A stretch of DNA of 64,000 nucleotides from Parcubacteria group bacterium (GCA_016180525.1 JACPBB010000002.1:225044-289043), one strand, 5' to 3'. Shown: positions 441 through 8,848, counted from the first letter of the stretch. The notes: generated from the letters alone by a model not told the origin. Made by a program: numbers and translations.

Positions 441-1145
441 TTACTTTCCGGTTCGGACAAACTCAATCGTCTTGAGGTCCACTTCGTGGCCGGCATATGC
501 CTGGAACCAGCCGGTCTCTTTGTCCATCTCAACAACATAGAGGCTTAATCCTTCATCAGTCTCTGCAATGAAGTCCCAGTAATCAATCTTGCTTTCTTTC
601 TTTCCATCACTCGTATGCTCCGTTACAACAGCGGCGTGCTCTTCCTTGATATCGCCGGGCCGAGCAAACGACAGCCCCCCAACATCATCTACCGGAAGCT
701 TCCCACGCTTTAATTTACCATGCGCACCCTTATCATATTTACATTCAAATTGTGGCACTAAAAGATAGGAACTTGCTCCCTCAACGACTGAATCATGTTT
801 TCCGCGCGGCACAATGCGGAGCAGAAGCCACACGGCGTCGTCGTCTGTCTTTGCACCCCGCCTGTCTACCAAGAGATAGTCAGCAAACAAATACCGCTCA
901 TCACTAATAGTGCGTGCCGTGACGTTTATGGCATCAACTGCAAAGTGACTTTCTTTATACTCATCCATTCGGACAAGCGCGACGTCTCCGAGTGAGAGGT
1001 CAAGAGGATTGTATTCAATGAGTGCTCGCTTTACTTCGCGAACTCCCGCTTCTACCGCGTCCGTGACAACCTCTGTTGTCTTTTTGGCGCCCCGCATTGC
1101 TTGTTTCAACATTTCAAACGGAGTCATTTTTTCGGTACCGCTCAT
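441..1145 (-). CDS. Hypothetical protein, DUF4178/YjfK-like, in a DUF350 operon
   Basis: 234-aa ORF overlapping the upstream stop by 4 nt. Family guess is from context and the beta-rich YWDF...LYVVEMDKETGWF...G segment. Confidence 0.45.
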   Translation of the reverse strand: MSGTEKMTPFEMLKQAMRGAKKTTEVVTDAVEAGVREVKRALIEYNPLDLSLGDVALVRMDEYKESHFAVDAINVTARTISDERYLFADYLLVDRRGAKTDDDAVWLLLRIVPRGKHDSVVEGASSYLLVPQFECKYDKGAHGKLKRGKLPVDDVGGLSFARPGDIKEEHAAVVTEHTSDGKKESKIDYWDFIAETDEGLSLYVVEMDKETGWFQAYAGHEVDLKTIEFVRTGK

Positions 1146-2044
1146 GCATCTCTCCTGCGGATGTTAAATTTATGGAAGAATACGACGTACACAAGAGATC
1201 CGCCAAGAAGCAATGTAATGATTGTCGTCCACACGTATGTTGATAGGCTGGAAGACTCCTTAGCCTTTTCCGCGGCAACCTCGTCTTTGTAGACGAGATC
1301 CCTGTCTTTCTCTAACTCCTTCGGAACATATGTCGGATCTTTCTTAACACCAGTATCTTCAAGCGCCTTGAGGCGCTTGTCCATATCGGCGTCTTTTTGC
1401 TTGAGTTCTGCAAGACGGTTCGGGTCCATTGAGTCGCGATGGTTATAGACAAACCGGTCTCGCTCATGTGAGTTTTGGCTCATGAGCCATATCCAGAACC
1501 ACGGACTGATGCCATCGTTGTAGTGATGAACAACCGTTTGTCCGCTGGACTGATAATTGCTACCGAATCGCTCTGAGGCGCGCCTTTCGCGCGTTTGCCA
1601 GTCATTTTTTGAATAATCACGTGGCATTGCCGCGTTCTTTGTCTCCGGCTTCGGAGACGGCCTGTAGACTGGAGTTTCTTTAGCCGCGGGCTTTGGCGGA
1701 TTTGCTTTCTCAAACGCTGCTTTCGACTGCTCTTTCTTGACGCTCTTTAGGGCGCTGCTGTCATATGAAGATGATTTTGACGGCGTTGGAGATTTGCTGG
1801 GAGCGCTGAAAAAAGGCTTTGAAGCTGATGGACTTGTCGATGGTTTGTAGCTTGGCGTCGACGATCGCGACGGACTGCTTTTAAACGACGGCGATGAACG
1901 TGAAGGACTGCTTTTAAATGACGGAGAAGACTTGAAGCCACCACCACCGCCCCTAAATCCACCACCCTTAGCAAAGGAAACGGCGGGAGCAAGAACAATT
2001 GTCGCCGCAACGAGTGCGACGAGGCACTTCTTGAGGATGTTCAT
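1142..2044 (-). CDS. Exported Gly/Ser/Pro-rich low-complexity protein with C-terminal TM anchor
   Basis: Start reassigned to MNILKK (AAGGAGG RBS upstream). Signal peptide, GGGFRGGGGG and SSPS repeats, ISPWFWIWLM motif, C-terminal TM helix. Confidence 0.75.
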   Translation of the reverse strand: MNILKKCLVALVAATIVLAPAVSFAKGGGFRGGGGGFKSSPSFKSSPSRSSPSFKSSPSRSSTPSYKPSTSPSASKPFFSAPSKSPTPSKSSSYDSSALKSVKKEQSKAAFEKANPPKPAAKETPVYRPSPKPETKNAAMPRDYSKNDWQTRERRASERFGSNYQSSGQTVVHHYNDGISPWFWIWLMSQNSHERDRFVYNHRDSMDPNRLAELKQKDADMDKRLKALEDTGVKKDPTYVPKELEKDRDLVYKDEVAAEKAKESSSLSTYVWTTIITLLLGGSLVYVVFFHKFNIRRRDA

Positions 2045-2057
2045 GTGGGCCTCCTTC

Positions 2058-2921
2058 CTAGCCTGCAAGGTGAACGAACATGACGGTAATTGCGACAGAC
2101 AGGGTTCCGTCAACAAAGCCAACGCCCCAATTTCTGTCAGCCGTCATTTCTTTGCGCATCCGCGCACCAGGAATAATGATATAGTTCACGACAAGTCGCA
2201 GCACTGTCATCACAAAGAGCCAGATACCCACGTAAAGCACAACGTCCAGAAGATCGCTCGTCCAGCTTTCAAACTGCCCAGTGAGGGCGCCTCCAAGTGC
2301 CATGCCAGCCGCGATAAGCAAACCACCCATCGAGAATGCGACAGCTGTGTTTTGGTTCGCGATCTCATCGGCGGCGTTTGGCACCACAAACCGATAAAGA
2401 TACGCAACGGTGACGAGCAAGCCTTGTCCGAGCGCAAACCACACGACTTCCGTCGTGAACTTGTCTTCGCTTCCGGCAAATGCTCCCGAAAAGATAAAGG
2501 CCGTCGCCGCAAGAGTTGACGCCTCAATGATTCCGACAGCGGTATTCCGCTTTCCCACAACCTCGGCTGTGTTTGAAACTTTGCTCAAGATGCACTTGTC
2601 GTTTACCCACATTGAAATCCACAACAGCACAATAACTGTAACGAGCGACTCTCCCAGTACTGCCATGTCGTAGAGCCACCCGAGTCCGCTTGGCTTGGCG
2701 ATGCCGATAAACGCGACAATCGTCGCAAAGAGCATGCCAGCGAGCCGGATGAGTACTGCTGGGTTATCAGACTCCACTGCTTCTTGTGTGAAACTGTATT
2801 TGTGCACGACTCTGGCCTCTATGCCAAAGACGACACGGGAAACAATCACTGCCACCATTGAAACAATGATGATTGGAAGTACCTGCGATACGAGCAGGGA
2901 TCCAAGTTCTGCAAGCGTCAT
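2058..2921 (-). CDS. Double DUF350 (YjfL-like) inner membrane protein
   Basis: About 8 TM helices with repeated N-x-A-V-G/A motifs (DNPAV, RNTAVG, QNTAVA, RNWGVG); AAGGAGG RBS. Confidence 0.75.
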   Translation of the reverse strand: MTLAELGSLLVSQVLPIIIVSMVAVIVSRVVFGIEARVVHKYSFTQEAVESDNPAVLIRLAGMLFATIVAFIGIAKPSGLGWLYDMAVLGESLVTVIVLLWISMWVNDKCILSKVSNTAEVVGKRNTAVGIIEASTLAATAFIFSGAFAGSEDKFTTEVVWFALGQGLLVTVAYLYRFVVPNAADEIANQNTAVAFSMGGLLIAAGMALGGALTGQFESWTSDLLDVVLYVGIWLFVMTVLRLVVNYIIIPGARMRKEMTADRNWGVGFVDGTLSVAITVMFVHLAG

Positions 2922-3010
2922 TGTAAACCCTCCTTTTAAGGGTTATTTGTTAAGGAACCGAGGACAGACTATTCTGTCCCACGAACAACATATTAGCAAT
3001 ATTATGTATT

Positions 3011-3052
3011 TTTGTCAAATAATATTTGACAAATAAACAATAGTATGATAAA
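3011..3052. promoter_or_regulatory. Divergent sigma70-type promoters sharing a palindrome
   Basis: TTTGTCAAATA-A-TATTTGACAAA inverted repeat puts TTGACA on both strands between divergent genes; AT-rich -10-like sequences follow. Confidence 0.55.
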
Positions 3053-3110
3053 TTAGATAATAGATGCTACGGTTCTGCGGATGAAGGGTGTTGAAAGGAG
3101 GGGCGTGCCG

Positions 3111-4160
3111 ATGTTTTTGAAGCTATACCGGCGGCTAAGCCGCATAAGCAGCCGCGCGCTGCTCTTCACTCTTCCGGTACTCTTCTGCGCCACATGGTTT
3201 TTGATGTGGAGGTTTGAAGGGCCGGTACCGATTGTCTCCCCGGGAGTGTACTGGTGGTATTTCATCGTCACTGCGGCAACGGTCGGGTACGGTGATTTTA
3301 CTCCGGTGACACTCGGTGGGCGCATTGTTGGCGCCACAATTATGCTCGGAGGCATCGGGATCCTCGCCGGACTGCTTGGCAAAATAGCCGAGTCCGTCAT
3401 CCGCTTCTCAAAATGGAGGGAGTCTGGAATGTTGCCACTTGACGCGAAAGACCACATTGTGGTTTTCGGATACCGAAAAGGTGAAACTGAGGAAGTCTTC
3501 AGAGAGTTGCTTGCGGATATAGATGTTCGGAAAACACACGTTGTGCTCTGCTCAAGCAGCGAAAAAACAAATCCGCTTTTGAGGCACAAAGAATTTAAAA
3601 CCGTTGAATTTGTTCACGGAGATCTTTCGTCGGAAGATGTCATGAAGCGGGCGTGCGTGGGAAGCGCGGCAAAAGTCGTTGTTCACGGACACTCGGATGA
3701 TCAAACGTTTGCTGTCGGCGTTGCCGCAAACGCAGAAATGCAGAAGAGCGCGCACATGGTTGCGTATTTTCATGACCCGCACAGAGCGTCGCTCTTACAG
3801 AAGGTTAACCCGCACATTAAATGTCAATCCTCGCTCTCCGTGCCGCTTTTGGTTCTTGAAACGCAGGAGCCGGGCTCTACAGAGATTGTGAGACAAATTC
3901 TCTCCCACTTGGATGGAGACACGGCATTTAGGTGTGATATTCCAAAAGATGTTACTTCCGTCTCTTACATGGATATGTTTGTATTCCTAAAGCGGAAATA
4001 CAACGCAGTGCTCATTGGTACCGCGGAGTCCCACGACAGGAGCGCAAAAGTGAAATTGAATTCAGAGGCAGAGCCCATGATTTCGGGTGGGATGTCCATC
4101 TTTTATGTCGCTCCGTCTCGGCTGAAAAACATTAATTGGTTTGAAGCGATACAGGTTTAA
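3111..4160 (+). CDS. Potassium channel protein (2-TM pore plus RCK/TrkA-N domain)
   Basis: Selectivity filter TVGYGD, KDHIVVFGY Rossmann start and FVHGD motif; RBS AAGGAGG before ATG 3111. Confidence 0.9.
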   Translation: MFLKLYRRLSRISSRALLFTLPVLFCATWFLMWRFEGPVPIVSPGVYWWYFIVTAATVGYGDFTPVTLGGRIVGATIMLGGIGILAGLLGKIAESVIRFSKWRESGMLPLDAKDHIVVFGYRKGETEEVFRELLADIDVRKTHVVLCSSSEKTNPLLRHKEFKTVEFVHGDLSSEDVMKRACVGSAAKVVVHGHSDDQTFAVGVAANAEMQKSAHMVAYFHDPHRASLLQKVNPHIKCQSSLSVPLLVLETQEPGSTEIVRQILSHLDGDTAFRCDIPKDVTSVSYMDMFVFLKRKYNAVLIGTAESHDRSAKVKLNSEAEPMISGGMSIFYVAPSRLKNINWFEAIQV

Positions 4161-4778: not shown

Positions 4779-4936
4779 TAGGCTCCAACATTTTTGATTC
4801 TACATATTATTATAATCTATTAGCAAAGATACTGTCGAGAGAGTCTCACGTTCTATTAAAGAGTGTGGGATTAATCCTCGACAATAACTATTTTGGGTGT
4901 ATAACAAAAAGAGACACATACACAAGGGACAAATAT

Positions 4937-5557
4937 ATGCGTACACGCGGCAGACGAAATAAGGAATCACAACTGACGGATGAATTGCGCTGCGAAATGA
5001 TTTTTTACGCAACTACGCATAATTATTCGGACGCTGAGCGTTATGAGCGTTTTGCGATTGATTGCAAGCTTGATAAAAAAGCGCTTGAAATCGGTGCGGT
5101 GGTGAGGGGTCTCGTTTCAGACCTGCGCGAACGCGGAAGGCCGCCAGTTCAGATATTGGAGACCGCTTCCGCCACGGGACTTACCGCCGTCGGAGTTGTT
5201 GCAGAACTCACAAGGGCTCGTATCATGTGTATATACACCTCGCTTGATGCAGAACAGAATCTTCTCAATTATGCTTGCGCGCGCGGCAGGGGGCATAAAT
5301 TTGTTCAGGGTGATTTTGAAGCGCTACCATTTAGCGATGAAATATTTGATGTGTACATCATGATGGGCGCGGCTGGATATCGGCCGAAAGGAACGTTTTA
5401 CAGCGAAGCATACCGTGTTCTGCGTAGCGGCGGCTACTATGTGATGCCACAGATTGGCCCGCAGCCGACGGTAAGCGAGCGGGAAAAAGCCGATGCGATG
5501 AGTGCTGGATTTATTATTATTCGCGCGGATAATTATCTCATTGCGCAGAAAAGTTAA
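4937..5557 (+). CDS. Class I SAM-dependent methyltransferase
   Basis: ILETASATG motif I, GDFEALPF..FD and RVLRSGG motifs; start uncertain. Confidence 0.75.
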   Translation: MRTRGRRNKESQLTDELRCEMIFYATTHNYSDAERYERFAIDCKLDKKALEIGAVVRGLVSDLRERGRPPVQILETASATGLTAVGVVAELTRARIMCIYTSLDAEQNLLNYACARGRGHKFVQGDFEALPFSDEIFDVYIMMGAAGYRPKGTFYSEAYRVLRSGGYYVMPQIGPQPTVSEREKADAMSAGFIIIRADNYLIAQKS

Positions 5558-5619
5558 TCAAGAACAGTAAAGCCCGACCATTCAGTCGGGTTTTTGTATA
5601 CAGCGAAGAAGTATTGTTT

Positions 5620-5758
5620 TGTGGAGATTGATGAATGACGTTAGAACCTCTTTGGTTAAATCGAGAGATAGCGCGCAAATAAACGGTTTGATAGAATGTG
5701 TCAAAATATTTGAATCGCAGGTTGTCTAGGTGAGATACGTGGAAGAAGTTAGAACCTG
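5620..5758. repeat. 139-bp direct repeat copy A (att-like arm beginning with the tmRNA 3'-end core GTGGAGA)
   Basis: Same length as 7286-7424, with about 11 mismatches counted by eye. Confidence 0.9.
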
Positions 5759-5833
5759 GTAGTTTTTCAAAAGAAAAAGGCACGACCCGTTGTGGATCGT
5801 GCCTACAGTTTTGATCACAGAGGATTGTGCAAC

Positions 5834-7126
5834 TTACATCAACTGCATCATCCTATCGTAGTCGTTGGCAAGTGCATCCTGCCGAATGAGTCGCTGGGTG
5901 TGGTCAATCTCGATGCGATAGCCCTGCACGAGACAAGTCTCCTGACTATCGGCACCGCCAGTCTTGGTTGGATCACCGACGAGCTCGTAGGCATTCGCTT
6001 CTTTGGGGAGCACAGTCTGCGCCTCGCGGATGTCGTAGCGGAAGATTGGGACGGGGTAGTTCGACTCGGTGTAAAACCGGGCGAGTTCTCCCACCTTCTC
6101 CATTGACGTGACACGGAACTCCGGCTCGTAACTATCCGCGCTGGCTCCCTTCTTCTGGAACTGCGTGAACCATGTCTTGTCCGGCATTTGCATCAGGACG
6201 AAGAGCCCGTCGGGTGTGCGGTCGAGACCGCTTGGCTCGAAAAGCTCTTGCCAATGCTTGCGCAACAACCGACGTGCATCGGGACCGTCTTGAACTTTAC
6301 CGACCGGACCCGGACGAACTCCGAGCAGTCGCACACCGTTCCACCACTCGTGGATACCGACGTCGCACGCCCAGCTCGGCAATTGCATGCCGTTCTGATG
6401 ATGGATGAGACCAATCCCACCGATCGAGGTGAGATGTGCGAAGGCAAGACCCGGCTCGATATCGCGACACCAGTACGGCAAGTTGCCCGGCTCCTCGACA
6501 TCAATGATGTGGGGATCGCCGACCTCTTTGCTTGCCTGCTTCTGGTAGTACTGACGAGCCAGCGCAGCGTGACGCGTGATGTACTCGTGCGCTTGCGGAC
6601 CAAGCCGTGCCACCAGCAAAGCATCGCGACTTGCGTCGCTCGCTCGCCGGTAACCAGTCGGAGCTCGAAACTGCTGGTCGCCCCAGCGGTTGCGGTACTC
6701 CTCGTAGTCGATGATCGACACGTCGCCGTATTCGCCACGAGCCAACTTGTCGAACTCCACCTGCGAGATACGTCCGCCGCGATGATTGCGCGACTTGTCA
6801 TCGAACTCGTAGCGGTAGGCGTCGAGGATTCCTTGCAGTGTCGACATCGGACCGATACCATGCGCGACGATGATCGACGTACGACCAGCCAGCACGCCGA
6901 AGTACTCGGCCGTCAGGGTGGTGTAGTAGCGATCCCACGGCGTGGGGTTCGAGGAGTTAGTCATTCCCAACTCCTTGTATGGAGGAGTTACGAGCCGCAT
7001 CGCGATCGCATCCGGCATGGTGCCGATGTGACCGTCTTTTCCAGCGAACTTGCTTGCTTGCTTGAACGCCGGAACGAAGCCTTTTTCGTGATAAAAGGCC
7101 ATTGAACCGCCAGCTTTCTTACTCAT
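5834..7126 (-). CDS. Hypothetical protein (~430 aa), GC-rich cargo gene
   Basis: Start reassigned to MSKKAGG (AAGGAGAG RBS). Visibly higher GC and GC3 than the flanks; no recognisable motif. Confidence 0.75.
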   Translation of the reverse strand: MSKKAGGSMAFYHEKGFVPAFKQASKFAGKDGHIGTMPDAIAMRLVTPPYKELGMTNSSNPTPWDRYYTTLTAEYFGVLAGRTSIIVAHGIGPMSTLQGILDAYRYEFDDKSRNHRGGRISQVEFDKLARGEYGDVSIIDYEEYRNRWGDQQFRAPTGYRRASDASRDALLVARLGPQAHEYITRHAALARQYYQKQASKEVGDPHIIDVEEPGNLPYWCRDIEPGLAFAHLTSIGGIGLIHHQNGMQLPSWACDVGIHEWWNGVRLLGVRPGPVGKVQDGPDARRLLRKHWQELFEPSGLDRTPDGLFVLMQMPDKTWFTQFQKKGASADSYEPEFRVTSMEKVGELARFYTESNYPVPIFRYDIREAQTVLPKEANAYELVGDPTKTGGADSQETCLVQGYRIEIDHTQRLIRQDALANDYDRMMQLM

Positions 7127-7234
7127 TGAGTACTCTCCTTTTTTCCGTGTTTGGGATTTGAAGGAACGGACGGGATTGTCCAAAAATATGATACCACGAA
7201 GTCTTGTATAAATCAATAGTGAGAAATATAGATA

Positions 7235-7293
7235 AAAACACCCAGAAAATCGGGGCATTTTTATTCTTCCATATTGTTCTACGGCTGTGGAGA
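7235..7293. repeat. ~59-bp repeat (terminator plus tmRNA 3'-end core), copy of 8034-8093
   Basis: AAAACACCC...CGGGG..TTTTTATTCTTCCATATTGTTCTACG(G/T)CTGTGGAGA occurs at both positions. Confidence 0.9.
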
Positions 7294-7424
7294 CTGATGA
7301 ATGACGTTAGAACCTCTTTGGTTAAATCGAGAGATAGCGCGCAAATAAACGCTTTGCTGGAATGTGTCAAAACATTTGAATCGAGTGTTGTTTAGGTGAG
7401 ATGCATGGAAGAAGTTAGAACCTG
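7286..7424. repeat. 139-bp direct repeat copy B
   Basis: Matches 5620-5758. Confidence 0.9.
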
Positions 7425-7458
7425 TTGGTCGAAAGTGGTAAAATGAGGGAAAAGATTT

Positions 7459-8034
7459 ATGAATATAGAATACGAAGCTACATTTTTAGATGTGAATAAA
7501 GATGAAATGCGTAAGCGCCTGAAAGACGCTGGAGCTACTCTTGTACGACCAGAGTATTTACAGAGAAGAATCCCTTTTTACTTACCGGAAGGTAAGCGCT
7601 CAAAAGATGCATGGCTGCGAGTCCGCGACGAAGGAGACAAGATCACGTTGAGCTTAAAGATCGTTGCTGGTGAGAAAATTGAAGATCAAAAAGAAATCTG
7701 TCTTGTGGTTAATGATTTTGATGAAGCGGTAAAACTTCTTGAATCAATCGGCTGTGAAAAGAAATCTTACCAAGAGACTAGGCGTGAGCTCTGGGTTTTA
7801 GATAATGTCGAAATCACCATTGATGAATGGCCGTTTCTCGAACCCTTTGTTGAAGTAGAAGGACATTCAGAAGAAGAGGTAAAAAAGGTGTCAGAAAAAA
7901 TAGGATTCAACTACAGCGGTGCTCTTTTTTGTGCTGTCGGAAAACTGTACAAGATGAAATACGGAATCCATCCAGACGAGATCAATACAGTCGAGAAAAT
8001 AGTATTTGATATGAAAAACCCTTTCTTGAAATAA
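7459..8034 (+). CDS. CYTH domain protein (class IV adenylate cyclase-like)
   Basis: N-terminal EYEATF, WLRVRDEG, ETRRELW and FVEVEG motifs. Confidence 0.88.
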   Translation: MNIEYEATFLDVNKDEMRKRLKDAGATLVRPEYLQRRIPFYLPEGKRSKDAWLRVRDEGDKITLSLKIVAGEKIEDQKEICLVVNDFDEAVKLLESIGCEKKSYQETRRELWVLDNVEITIDEWPFLEPFVEVEGHSEEEVKKVSEKIGFNYSGALFCAVGKLYKMKYGIHPDEINTVEKIVFDMKNPFLK

Positions 8035-8086
8035 AAACACCCTGATTTTCGGGGTGTTTTTATTCTTCCATATTGTTCTACGTCTG

Positions 8087-8492
8087 TGGAGATGGGCAGA
8101 TTTGAACTGCCGTGCAAAAAGGATTTTTAATTGGTTCTACGCATGTAGAGTATTTTAATTTTAAGTATCGTGCGTAAAAAATATTCAAAATCGCACGGCA
8201 CCGAGTTTCTTCCGCCGAAGCGGATTTTGGAAAACAGCCGAAACAAACTATTTTCCTATTCCGAAAATATTATGCGTATATCTCTCTATCGGAAGTCAAG
8301 AGTATACACACCAACTATCGCAATTTATGCGTATGCTGGAGCAAAACCTACGCGGTCAACTCCGAAGAGCGACGCAAGCGCTGATTCCACTTTAGAAAAT
8401 AAGTTTGCACTTATTTATGTGGCCGGTTTACGAGTCAGCCAGCTCTATGCGCGCAATTAAAAATGTTCTTCTTGGCGATGCCTTTCATCCCC
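8087..8492 (-). ncRNA. ssrA: tmRNA
   Basis: 5' GGGGATG pairs with 3' CATCTCC-A including the G3.U wobble; T-arm GGCAG-TTCAAAT-CTGCC; tag ORF at 8325-8408 ending YA*; smpB lies just upstream. Confidence 0.93.
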
Positions 8493-8558
8493 CTAAATCA
8501 CTCCGCCAGAGGCGGATGATTGGGCAAGCGTTTTCGCGAAGCGAAAAGCGCTTTAGCC
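8491..8558. repeat. Structured two-hairpin element, copy 1 (CCCTAAATCA-hp-TGATTGGGCAA-hp-TTTAGCC)
   Basis: Conserved linkers shared with 30102-30169 and 39560-39632; stems differ in sequence but still pair. Confidence 0.8.
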
Positions 8559-8831
8559 ACGCTTCGCATGGCTTATTTTGTTTACATAGAAATTTTTCAC
8601 TCGTTGTTTAAATACATTTCCCCACTTAGTTTTAAGGAATCTTTCTCTCTGGAATGCTTCCGATTGAGAAATATATTTTTCTGTATAAATCAGAACGAGA
8701 GGTCTGCGAAATTTTGTTGCAGGTATAAATCCTTTATTATGTCTCGCAACTCTTTTTTGTATATTTCTTGTACAGCCTGTATAAAGTTTTTCATCTTTCT
8801 TGCTGTACAGAATGTAAACAAAATAAGACAT
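8553..8831 (-). CDS. Small GIY-YIG nuclease family protein
   Basis: YFVYILYS...LYTGCT...R...HN.G...TK.RRP..L.Y.E...A..RE..LK motif. Confidence 0.9.
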   Translation of the reverse strand: MSYFVYILYSKKDEKLYTGCTRNIQKRVARHNKGFIPATKFRRPLVLIYTEKYISQSEAFQRERFLKTKWGNVFKQRVKNFYVNKISHAKRG

Positions 8832-8848
8832 GTGAATTAATATAACAC

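Follow-up and report, generated by a model that had tools for sequence, protein, structure and literature searches.

Introduction

Integrons are defined by the tyrosine recombinase IntI, the attachment (att) site attI and the attC sites, which carry the motif RYYYAAC...GTTRRRY and form a single-strand hairpin. Other systems accumulate at the ends of stable RNA genes: in Dehalococcoides, tandem islands are described at ssrA, the transfer-messenger RNA (tmRNA) gene, with a serine integrase, DsiB, whose gene extends at its 3' end into the att site and was suggested to be complete only on the circle, together with 15 islands that lack the integration module and were proposed to be cis-mobilizable (PMC3146451). 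Cis-mobilizable elements (CIMEs) are described as individual decay products of integrative and conjugative elements or integrative and mobilizable elements, with accretion at the end of a target gene (PMC5704250), and the Tycheposons of Prochlorococcus mostly have tyrosine integrases (910 of 937 elements; bioRxiv 10.1101/2020.12.28.424599). Here we analyze a stretch of 64,000 nt from Parcubacteria group bacterium (GCA_016180525.1 JACPBB010000002.1:225044-289043), hereafter the window, in which two short units, each consisting of a left arm, one gene and a right arm, stand in tandem at the 3' end of the tmRNA gene. Sequence comparison makes it probable that these are cassettes of one gene each that encode no recombinase themselves, placed one behind the other at the tmRNA and inserted stepwise by a large serine recombinase (LSR) acting in trans from a helper element of about 10 kb.

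Relative to the Dehalococcoides ssrA islands and to CIMEs, the units can be regarded as a minimal variant of stereotyped build. With the former they share tandem integration at the tmRNA 3' end and, in the helpers, an integrase gene lying over the att site; unlike those islands, which are multi-gene (about 12 kb for the vcr islands) and have a 20-bp ssrA repeat (PMC3146451), the units are 0.6-1.7 kb long with one gene and a 2-7-bp core, carry a terminator in a right arm of their own, contain a second half-site internally and use tRNA-Ala as a further target. The Dehalococcoides module is described as DsiA, RecF, ParB and Mom (PMC3146451), whereas the helpers here have a CHC2 zinc-finger gene; homologues of these four proteins are absent from the units, and Pfam detected none among the scanned helper genes. 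Like CIMEs, the units are without integration or transfer genes, keep their att ends (as sequence) and stack at the end of a target gene; unlike CIMEs, they constitute a family whose ends are fixed and whose single genes are interchangeable, and the window contains no autonomous element next to them. The helpers resemble Tycheposons in combining an integrase, replication-type genes and cargo at tRNA or tmRNA genes, while the accessible part of the Tycheposon preprint does not describe fixed-arm single-gene cassettes (bioRxiv 10.1101/2020.12.28.424599).

An initial annotation of the window had called the locus functionally integron-like. This holds for the variable tandem arrays of mostly single-gene cassettes, for their presumed entry at one fixed site and for the likeness of their ends within a host, but these are not integrons: IntI and attC hairpins are lacking, the enzyme would be of the serine type, no recombinase stands at the array, and the genes lie in both orientations with terminators of their own. 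A search for PF00589 gave no match in the window, the nearest being about 93 kb away and Xer-like (126.8 bits vs the TIGR02249 cut-off of 265); the attC motif does not occur in 5501-8200. As to a shared Pc promoter that would drive co-oriented cassettes, a promoter scan was at chance (4 vs 4.1 expected). Novelty in kind is not supported, as islands in tandem at ssrA, some with a serine integrase and some lacking one, were already known from Dehalococcoides (PMC3146451); what is new here are minimal, fixed-arm, one-gene LSR cassettes at tmRNA and tRNA-Ala genes, with candidate helpers. A search of literature that left most subscription journals outside its coverage found no description of Patescibacteria cassettes of this kind or of single-gene serine-recombinase cassettes, and the available text of PMC9580842 has nothing on a tmRNA cassette system.

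Results

Two one-gene units with common arms adjoin the tmRNA gene

The genome that carries the window (G000) comprises 0.95 Mb and is 97% complete. Its tmRNA 3' end is followed by two tandem units of 1,666 bp (unit 1) and 799 bp (unit 2), and the order outward from the tmRNA is tmRNA, right arm R2, CYTH gene, left arm L2, right arm R1, 430-aa gene, left arm L1 and host flank. The features are as follows.

8086..8492, − strand: tmRNA gene (ssrA), ARAGORN (8492-8086), Rfam 105.5 bits
within 8086..8492, − strand: tmRNA T-arm and acceptor stem, the host half-site B, with putative zinc-ribbon-domain (ZD) motif GTTCAAATC at positions 19-11 from the centre
8088..8089, no strand: putative crossover dinucleotide of the tmRNA/unit 2 joint, GG on the + strand and CC on the tmRNA strand
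7289-7290 and 5623-5624, no strand: crossover equivalents at the other joints, GG being common to all joint variants
8031..8092, no strand: right arm R2, with a strong hairpin terminator (about 8030-8064, z score −5.6) and a putative P' half-site (8061-8088)
7459..8034, + strand: unit 2 cargo gene, CYTH-domain protein of 191 aa (PF01928)
7396..7422, no strand: D site of unit 2, a degenerate second P-type half-site, directly after which arm conservation stops
7288..7395, + strand: left arm L2, P half-site (7290-7317) and apparent severed LSR C-terminal tail (35 codons plus stop)
7232..7293, no strand: right arm R1, decayed hairpin (z score −1.3) and putative P' half (7262-7289); R1 plus L2 form an attP-like joint
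5834..7126, − strand: unit 1 cargo gene, 430-aa protein without Pfam or NCBIfam family
5778..5804, − strand: terminator-like hairpin 3' of the unit 1 cargo gene
5730..5756, no strand: D site of unit 1, a P-type second half-site
5622..5729, + strand: left arm L1, P half-site (5624-5651; putative ZD motif 5639-5647) and apparent severed LSR tail
4865..5623, + strand: host flank outside the units, with a SAM methyltransferase gene (ends 5557), a hairpin (5573-5590) and the B' half-site

The delimitation proposed in the initial annotation proved correct: GTGGAGA occurs at 5621, 7287 and 8086, relative to a chance expectation of about 0.15 (one strand, 2.47 kb). The core shared within the window is 7-8 bp, but across relatives only GG is invariant, which corrects the 7-bp core of the initial annotation. 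The left arms (5620-5758 vs 7286-7424) are 92.1% identical over 139 nt, in agreement with the earlier estimate of about 92%, and the right arms with their terminator (7232-7293 vs 8031-8092), likewise recognized earlier, are 88.7% identical over 62 nt; no further full copy of either arm exists in G000. As annotated, the cargo genes are unrelated, a PF01928 gene of 39% GC on the + strand and a family-less gene of 58% GC on the − strand. Sequence left of 5621 had been taken as the chromosomal flank, and this is supported by a same-family relative with different cassettes (G002), whose array is backed by the same methyltransferase (67% amino acid identity).

Unitigs from four runs of one study, which may be the source data, span the whole stretch, including the right-arm/left-arm joint, although the unitig graph alone cannot exclude alternative paths through the 57-nt stretch common to L1 and L2. 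No weight was given to depth differences or to a joint of 5748 with 7287 in run X3 (28 nt on one side), as arms common to co-occurring organisms account for the branches. Mis-assembly is unlikely, given that there are 8-11% differences between the arms, that the joints are covered by unitigs and that independent data show the same architecture. Nor are the arms peculiar to this assembly, since they recur in many relatives.

The left arm matches an LSR attachment half and gene end

Read from the core, the left arm encodes a 35-residue peptide starting WRLMNDVRT, which a profile search matched to the C-terminus of P0003, a 206-aa LSR fragment. Relatives of P0003 (120, among the matches listed) are LSRs carrying PF00239, PF07508 and PF13408, and their tails switch at W|W between tmRNA- or tRNA-derived sequence and an element-derived 'W.L...RT' form (about 14 cases, by eye). 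LSRs are present in 201 of 301 genomes of the order, and many of 30 inspected continue, in antisense, into the 3' end of a tRNA gene. In arms chosen by fixed spacing, the tail reading frame is open in 30 of 31 distinct arms and ends with TAG in 29. Directly after the tail stop lies the D site, a degenerate copy of P (20/28 to the P consensus), and immediately beyond it conservation drops from about 90% to background. These results indicate that the left arm is the P half of an LSR attP followed by the LSR C-terminal tail, apparently severed on integration, and it is from this tail and P half that the recombinase of the units can be assigned to the LSR family. The arms had earlier been described simply as shared attP arms, which needs refinement in that an LSR gene runs through the attP and the left arm is its severed 3' tail; likewise, the statement that the units contain no recombinase is right as to genes, but the final 35 codons of an LSR-type gene are present in each left arm.

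Within the P half, a 23-nt hairpin is inserted at the same position in G002, G106 and G322, which we take to be like repetitive extragenic palindromic (REP) sequences.

Right arms and crossover geometry

Where helper elements have LSR coding sequence, the right arm is non-coding and consists of a conserved half-site and a hairpin. It abuts the tmRNAs of different hosts, a tRNA-Ala gene (L210) or the next P half at a TG|TGGA-type joint, with a varying distance to the inner motif; besides L210, right arms at tRNA-Ala ends were seen as loose ends in runs X2-X4. GG is the sole block common to all joint variants, and it is also the centre of the helper attP, where TTCATCART occurs as an inverted repeat, in P and in P', at positions 12-4 to either side of GG. 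R is more symmetric with D (13/28; at most 9 at other offsets) than with P (10/28). On one reading, R-gene-D would have been the original mini-element, which would have integrated beside a 108-bp P remnant and later travelled with it. The R2 hairpin is strong and the R1 hairpin weak, in line with the outer unit being older; folding of the joints was no better than that of shuffles (z scores 0.15 and 0.59).

The LI/A118 integrase model places the ZD motif at 24-16 in attP and 19-11 in attB (PMC3783163). A ZD-like motif, GTTC-AA, occupies positions 24-16 of P and, within the T-loop, 19-11 of the tmRNA. These positions fit the model, and a central dinucleotide is likewise shared with LI/A118, but a scan of whole half-sites did not single out the 5-bp shift. 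Unlike LI/A118, the attP lies inside the integrase gene 3' end, the host motif is the T-loop of a tmRNA or tRNA, and the B' half is highly variable.

Candidate helper elements encode a clade of LSRs

Two complete elements provide candidate helpers. That of G286 (L272:688-10940; 10.25 kb) begins at the tmRNA, ends in a P half, lacks an internal core and encodes a 563-aa LSR ending in the tmRNA, a CHC2 zinc-finger gene, unknowns and a DNA methylase, and that of G579 (L267:2505-12631; 10.1 kb) stands at tRNA-Ala with a CHC2 zinc-finger gene and an OLD-like ATPase. Their LSRs are 94% identical, and their P halves match the window's P2 at 25/28 and 26/28 positions, respectively. After the P half, both have a different tail of 26 aa (type B), and the full-length LSR P0152 reads through the P half into the same type. 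The serine integrase gene overlaps the att site at its 3' end in G286, G579 and P0152, and the window has the tail only. Most close members among 68 relatives of the helper LSR end in tmRNA- or tRNA-derived tails. A truncated helper-clade LSR in G322 (L273:13273-13787), with a 79% identical C-terminal part, ends in tRNA-Val(GAC); it represents a third target and a decay intermediate.

The complete tmRNA LSR element of G053 was rejected as a helper because its far end and frame differ, and an apparent right arm inside the G579 element was a false match. G053 (L270) carries LSR elements at both tmRNA and tRNA-Ser, with 8 kb between them; the one at tRNA-Ser lies beside a P-like end with its own short tail. 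In G000, the recombinase search suggested by the initial annotation returned tyrosine-type enzymes only, namely a 341-aa Xer-like protein and a fragment cut by a contig start (G000:C4:2-346, L016); because the fragment lies at a contig edge, G000 may contain an element that escaped assembly.

Relatives carry the same arms around different single genes

The left arm matches 14 of 401 genomes of the order, and the P-half pattern matches 9 of 371 genomes of the class (0 with the reversed control), both counts including G000; the P-half pattern also occurs in 59 metagenome contig stretches, several of them redundant. Thirteen of 14 records with arm-pattern matches in the genome collection are labelled as Patescibacteria-type or uncultured bacteria, and the host of the window is accordingly regarded as a Patescibacterium. 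A Vibrio match was attributed to chance, with neither arm nor tmRNA around it. A phage origin was set aside, as neither arm pattern had a match in viral contigs. In one search, three of four relatives matched over the short terminator alone and were left out of the cassette count, and extra tRNA and tmRNA predictions obtained at lowered thresholds were false and left out.

After removal of duplicate cargo, 39 window-type (type-A) arms were examined, of which 21 belong to complete units of 0.56-1.66 kb with 20 different cargo genes; the other 18 have no right arm in the available DNA (contig end or a different end). One open reading frame of at least 80 aa was found in 19 of the 21 units, two in one, and none by script in the last, which nonetheless has a 196-aa HAD hydrolase. 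Arrays contain one unit (L119, L193), two (window) or six (L189, before the tmRNA). Arm identity is 0.86 within contigs (13 pairs, 10 from L189) and 0.74 between contigs (452 pairs), and the window's two arms are each other's nearest. The expectation of the initial annotation, that the same arms would frame different single genes at tmRNA in variable number, is therefore borne out by relatives.

Cargo in relatives includes amidase, DsrE, histidine phosphatase, MGS, methyltransferases, serine hydrolase and unknowns, pointing toward the tmRNA in 15 units and away in 6, and only two pairs are related (CYTH at 93%, methyltransferases at 26%). The CYTH gene of the window (39% GC) has its stop codon inside the R2 hairpin. 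In L193/L194, these arms enclose the gene of a 93%-identical protein, as a single unit at a distant tmRNA whose flank is different. Between the two copies, 493/576 nt of the gene, 111/141 of the left arm, 51/58 of the right arm and 259/435 of the tmRNA are identical. The 430-aa gene has 58% GC (70% at third codon positions), its protein belongs to no Pfam or NCBIfam family, and its Atlas neighbours are unnamed clusters (0.91, low recognition). Copies about 95% identical occur without either arm in metagenome contigs of other studies, which suggests a recent capture from a higher-GC donor. N-acetylmuramoyl-L-alanine amidase-like genes recur beside arms in L120 and L122 (Pfam-confirmed) and L129 (by resemblance).

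Other features around tmRNA genes

The tag predicted by ARAGORN for the window's tmRNA is unusually long (27 residues), and the gene has insertions relative to the Rfam model, one like a small repeat hairpin. Next to it is a small GIY-YIG gene (8553-8831, − strand), with counterparts at L011:10626-10892 and L189:10398-10637; in the window it is flanked by 25-nt inverted repeats (8563-8587, 8812-8836), and G000 has four paralogues elsewhere. Left of the host flank, 441-4160 contains DUF350, a Gly/Ser-rich 326-aa protein, a 234-aa unknown and a potassium-channel gene, a cluster absent within about 11 kb downstream of 42 other tmRNAs. Gene-less units of about 200 bp lie downstream of the tmRNA in G001, G009, G019, G040, G045, G056 and others, and also at L272:278-686; they repeat the tmRNA 3' end with an inverted copy behind a hairpin and are sometimes in tandem.

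Discussion

If the cassettes are moved by a helper LSR, the circular unit would join R and P into an attP, which would recombine at the GG/CC dinucleotide with the attB formed by the tmRNA T-arm and acceptor stem. Integration would restore the tmRNA, the next unit would enter adjacent to it and older units would be displaced outward; because the tmRNA is restored at each insertion, unit 1 would be older than unit 2. The frame of the helper LSR would cross the crossover at a Trp codon, and integration would consequently swap its C-terminal tail, which cassettes would retain as a relic or as part of the site. Less firmly, cargo may be exchanged between D and R, and arms may have been recombined or homogenized within a host. 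We regard as tentative, with the balance against it, the further proposal of a serine-chemistry analogue of the integron, in which capture at D sites would make cassettes in the hosts and circles of less than 2 kb would be installed at tmRNA or tRNA-Ala on helper visits; a cassette tail could even complete the integrase frame of a neighbouring helper.

Several observations weigh against movement by the helper LSR. G000 has no LSR in family, profile or protein searches, and 10 other arm-bearing genomes have no intact close LSR of the helper clade, the best full-length match being 38%, with the 79%-identical truncated copy at tRNA-Val in addition. The 35-aa type-A tail is found on one LSR fragment only, P0003, which may itself be a tandem joint, and no complete element with this tail was found, the complete helpers being of type B. 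No circle or empty-site joint was seen among the contigs of four runs. Mobility is therefore deduced from distribution. At the sites themselves, the likeness of cassette R to P is weak (10/28, with 9 at other offsets) and the cassette right half is one base out of register relative to the helper P', so that its recognition by the helper LSR is only putative; an offset scan of whole P and B half-sites did not single out the 5-bp shift. In addition, 3 of 12 aligned arms have REP-like inserts within P, the terminator of R1 is decayed, and the tail has a ratio of nonsynonymous to synonymous polymorphism (pN/pS) of 0.98, without purifying selection at the protein level. Given this ratio and the selection of arms by fixed spacing, the tail may be a relic or may be constrained as DNA.

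The last three of these points would also fit immobile relics, in which a unit would be what deletion had left of a larger LSR island, decayed in the manner of a CIME to the one gene that happened to survive. This is the standard account of tandem islands (PMC5704250; PMC3146451), and besides the pN/pS of about 1, the inserts in P and the decayed R1 hairpin it has in its favour the truncated LSR at tRNA-Val in G322. We nevertheless consider it unlikely, since all units have sharp, identical boundaries with conservation falling to background after D, are of small size with nearly always one gene, and carry a non-coding half-site and terminator where the helper LSR has coding sequence, and since the whole CYTH unit recurs in a distant host. 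As to an origin by such decay, the P half matches the helpers, and the right arm and type-A tail match neither of them.

A smaller chance, in our judgment, attaches to arms laid down once by an LSR between which genes were later swapped by homologous recombination, for example after DNA uptake, and this process may have coexisted with the site-specific route. The greater similarity of arms within an array than across hosts speaks for it, as does the left arm of the CYTH unit, which is nearer to its neighbour (92%) than to the L193 arm with the same cargo (79%). Yet it is the att half-sites, not the whole arm, that are most conserved, the junctions of right arms with tmRNA, tRNA-Ala or P coincide with the crossover, and 62 nt is short for homologous recombination. 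Movement by a tyrosine recombinase, whether of integron type or a host Xer-like enzyme, is very improbable: although the only recombinases of G000 are of this class, there is no attC motif or hairpin, the Xer-like enzyme scores 127 bits where an integron integrase requires 265, the shared core is only 2-3 bp, and the ends match LSR genes and LSR elements. Stepwise insertion of one-gene cassettes by a helper LSR thus remains the reading we favour.

Patescibacteria have tiny genomes in which the gain of accessory genes is poorly described, and the locus offers a concrete, testable route for such gain, with att half-sites, a candidate enzyme clade, complete helpers and at least 20 cargo genes. 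The helper LSR clade, which is found at the ends of tmRNA, tRNA-Ala and tRNA-Val genes where host flanks vary greatly, deserves attention for integration tools as well. Should the cassettes prove mobile, shuffling of the kind known from integrons would have arisen independently with a serine recombinase, and the family would provide a second system in which to study how single-gene cassettes are formed.

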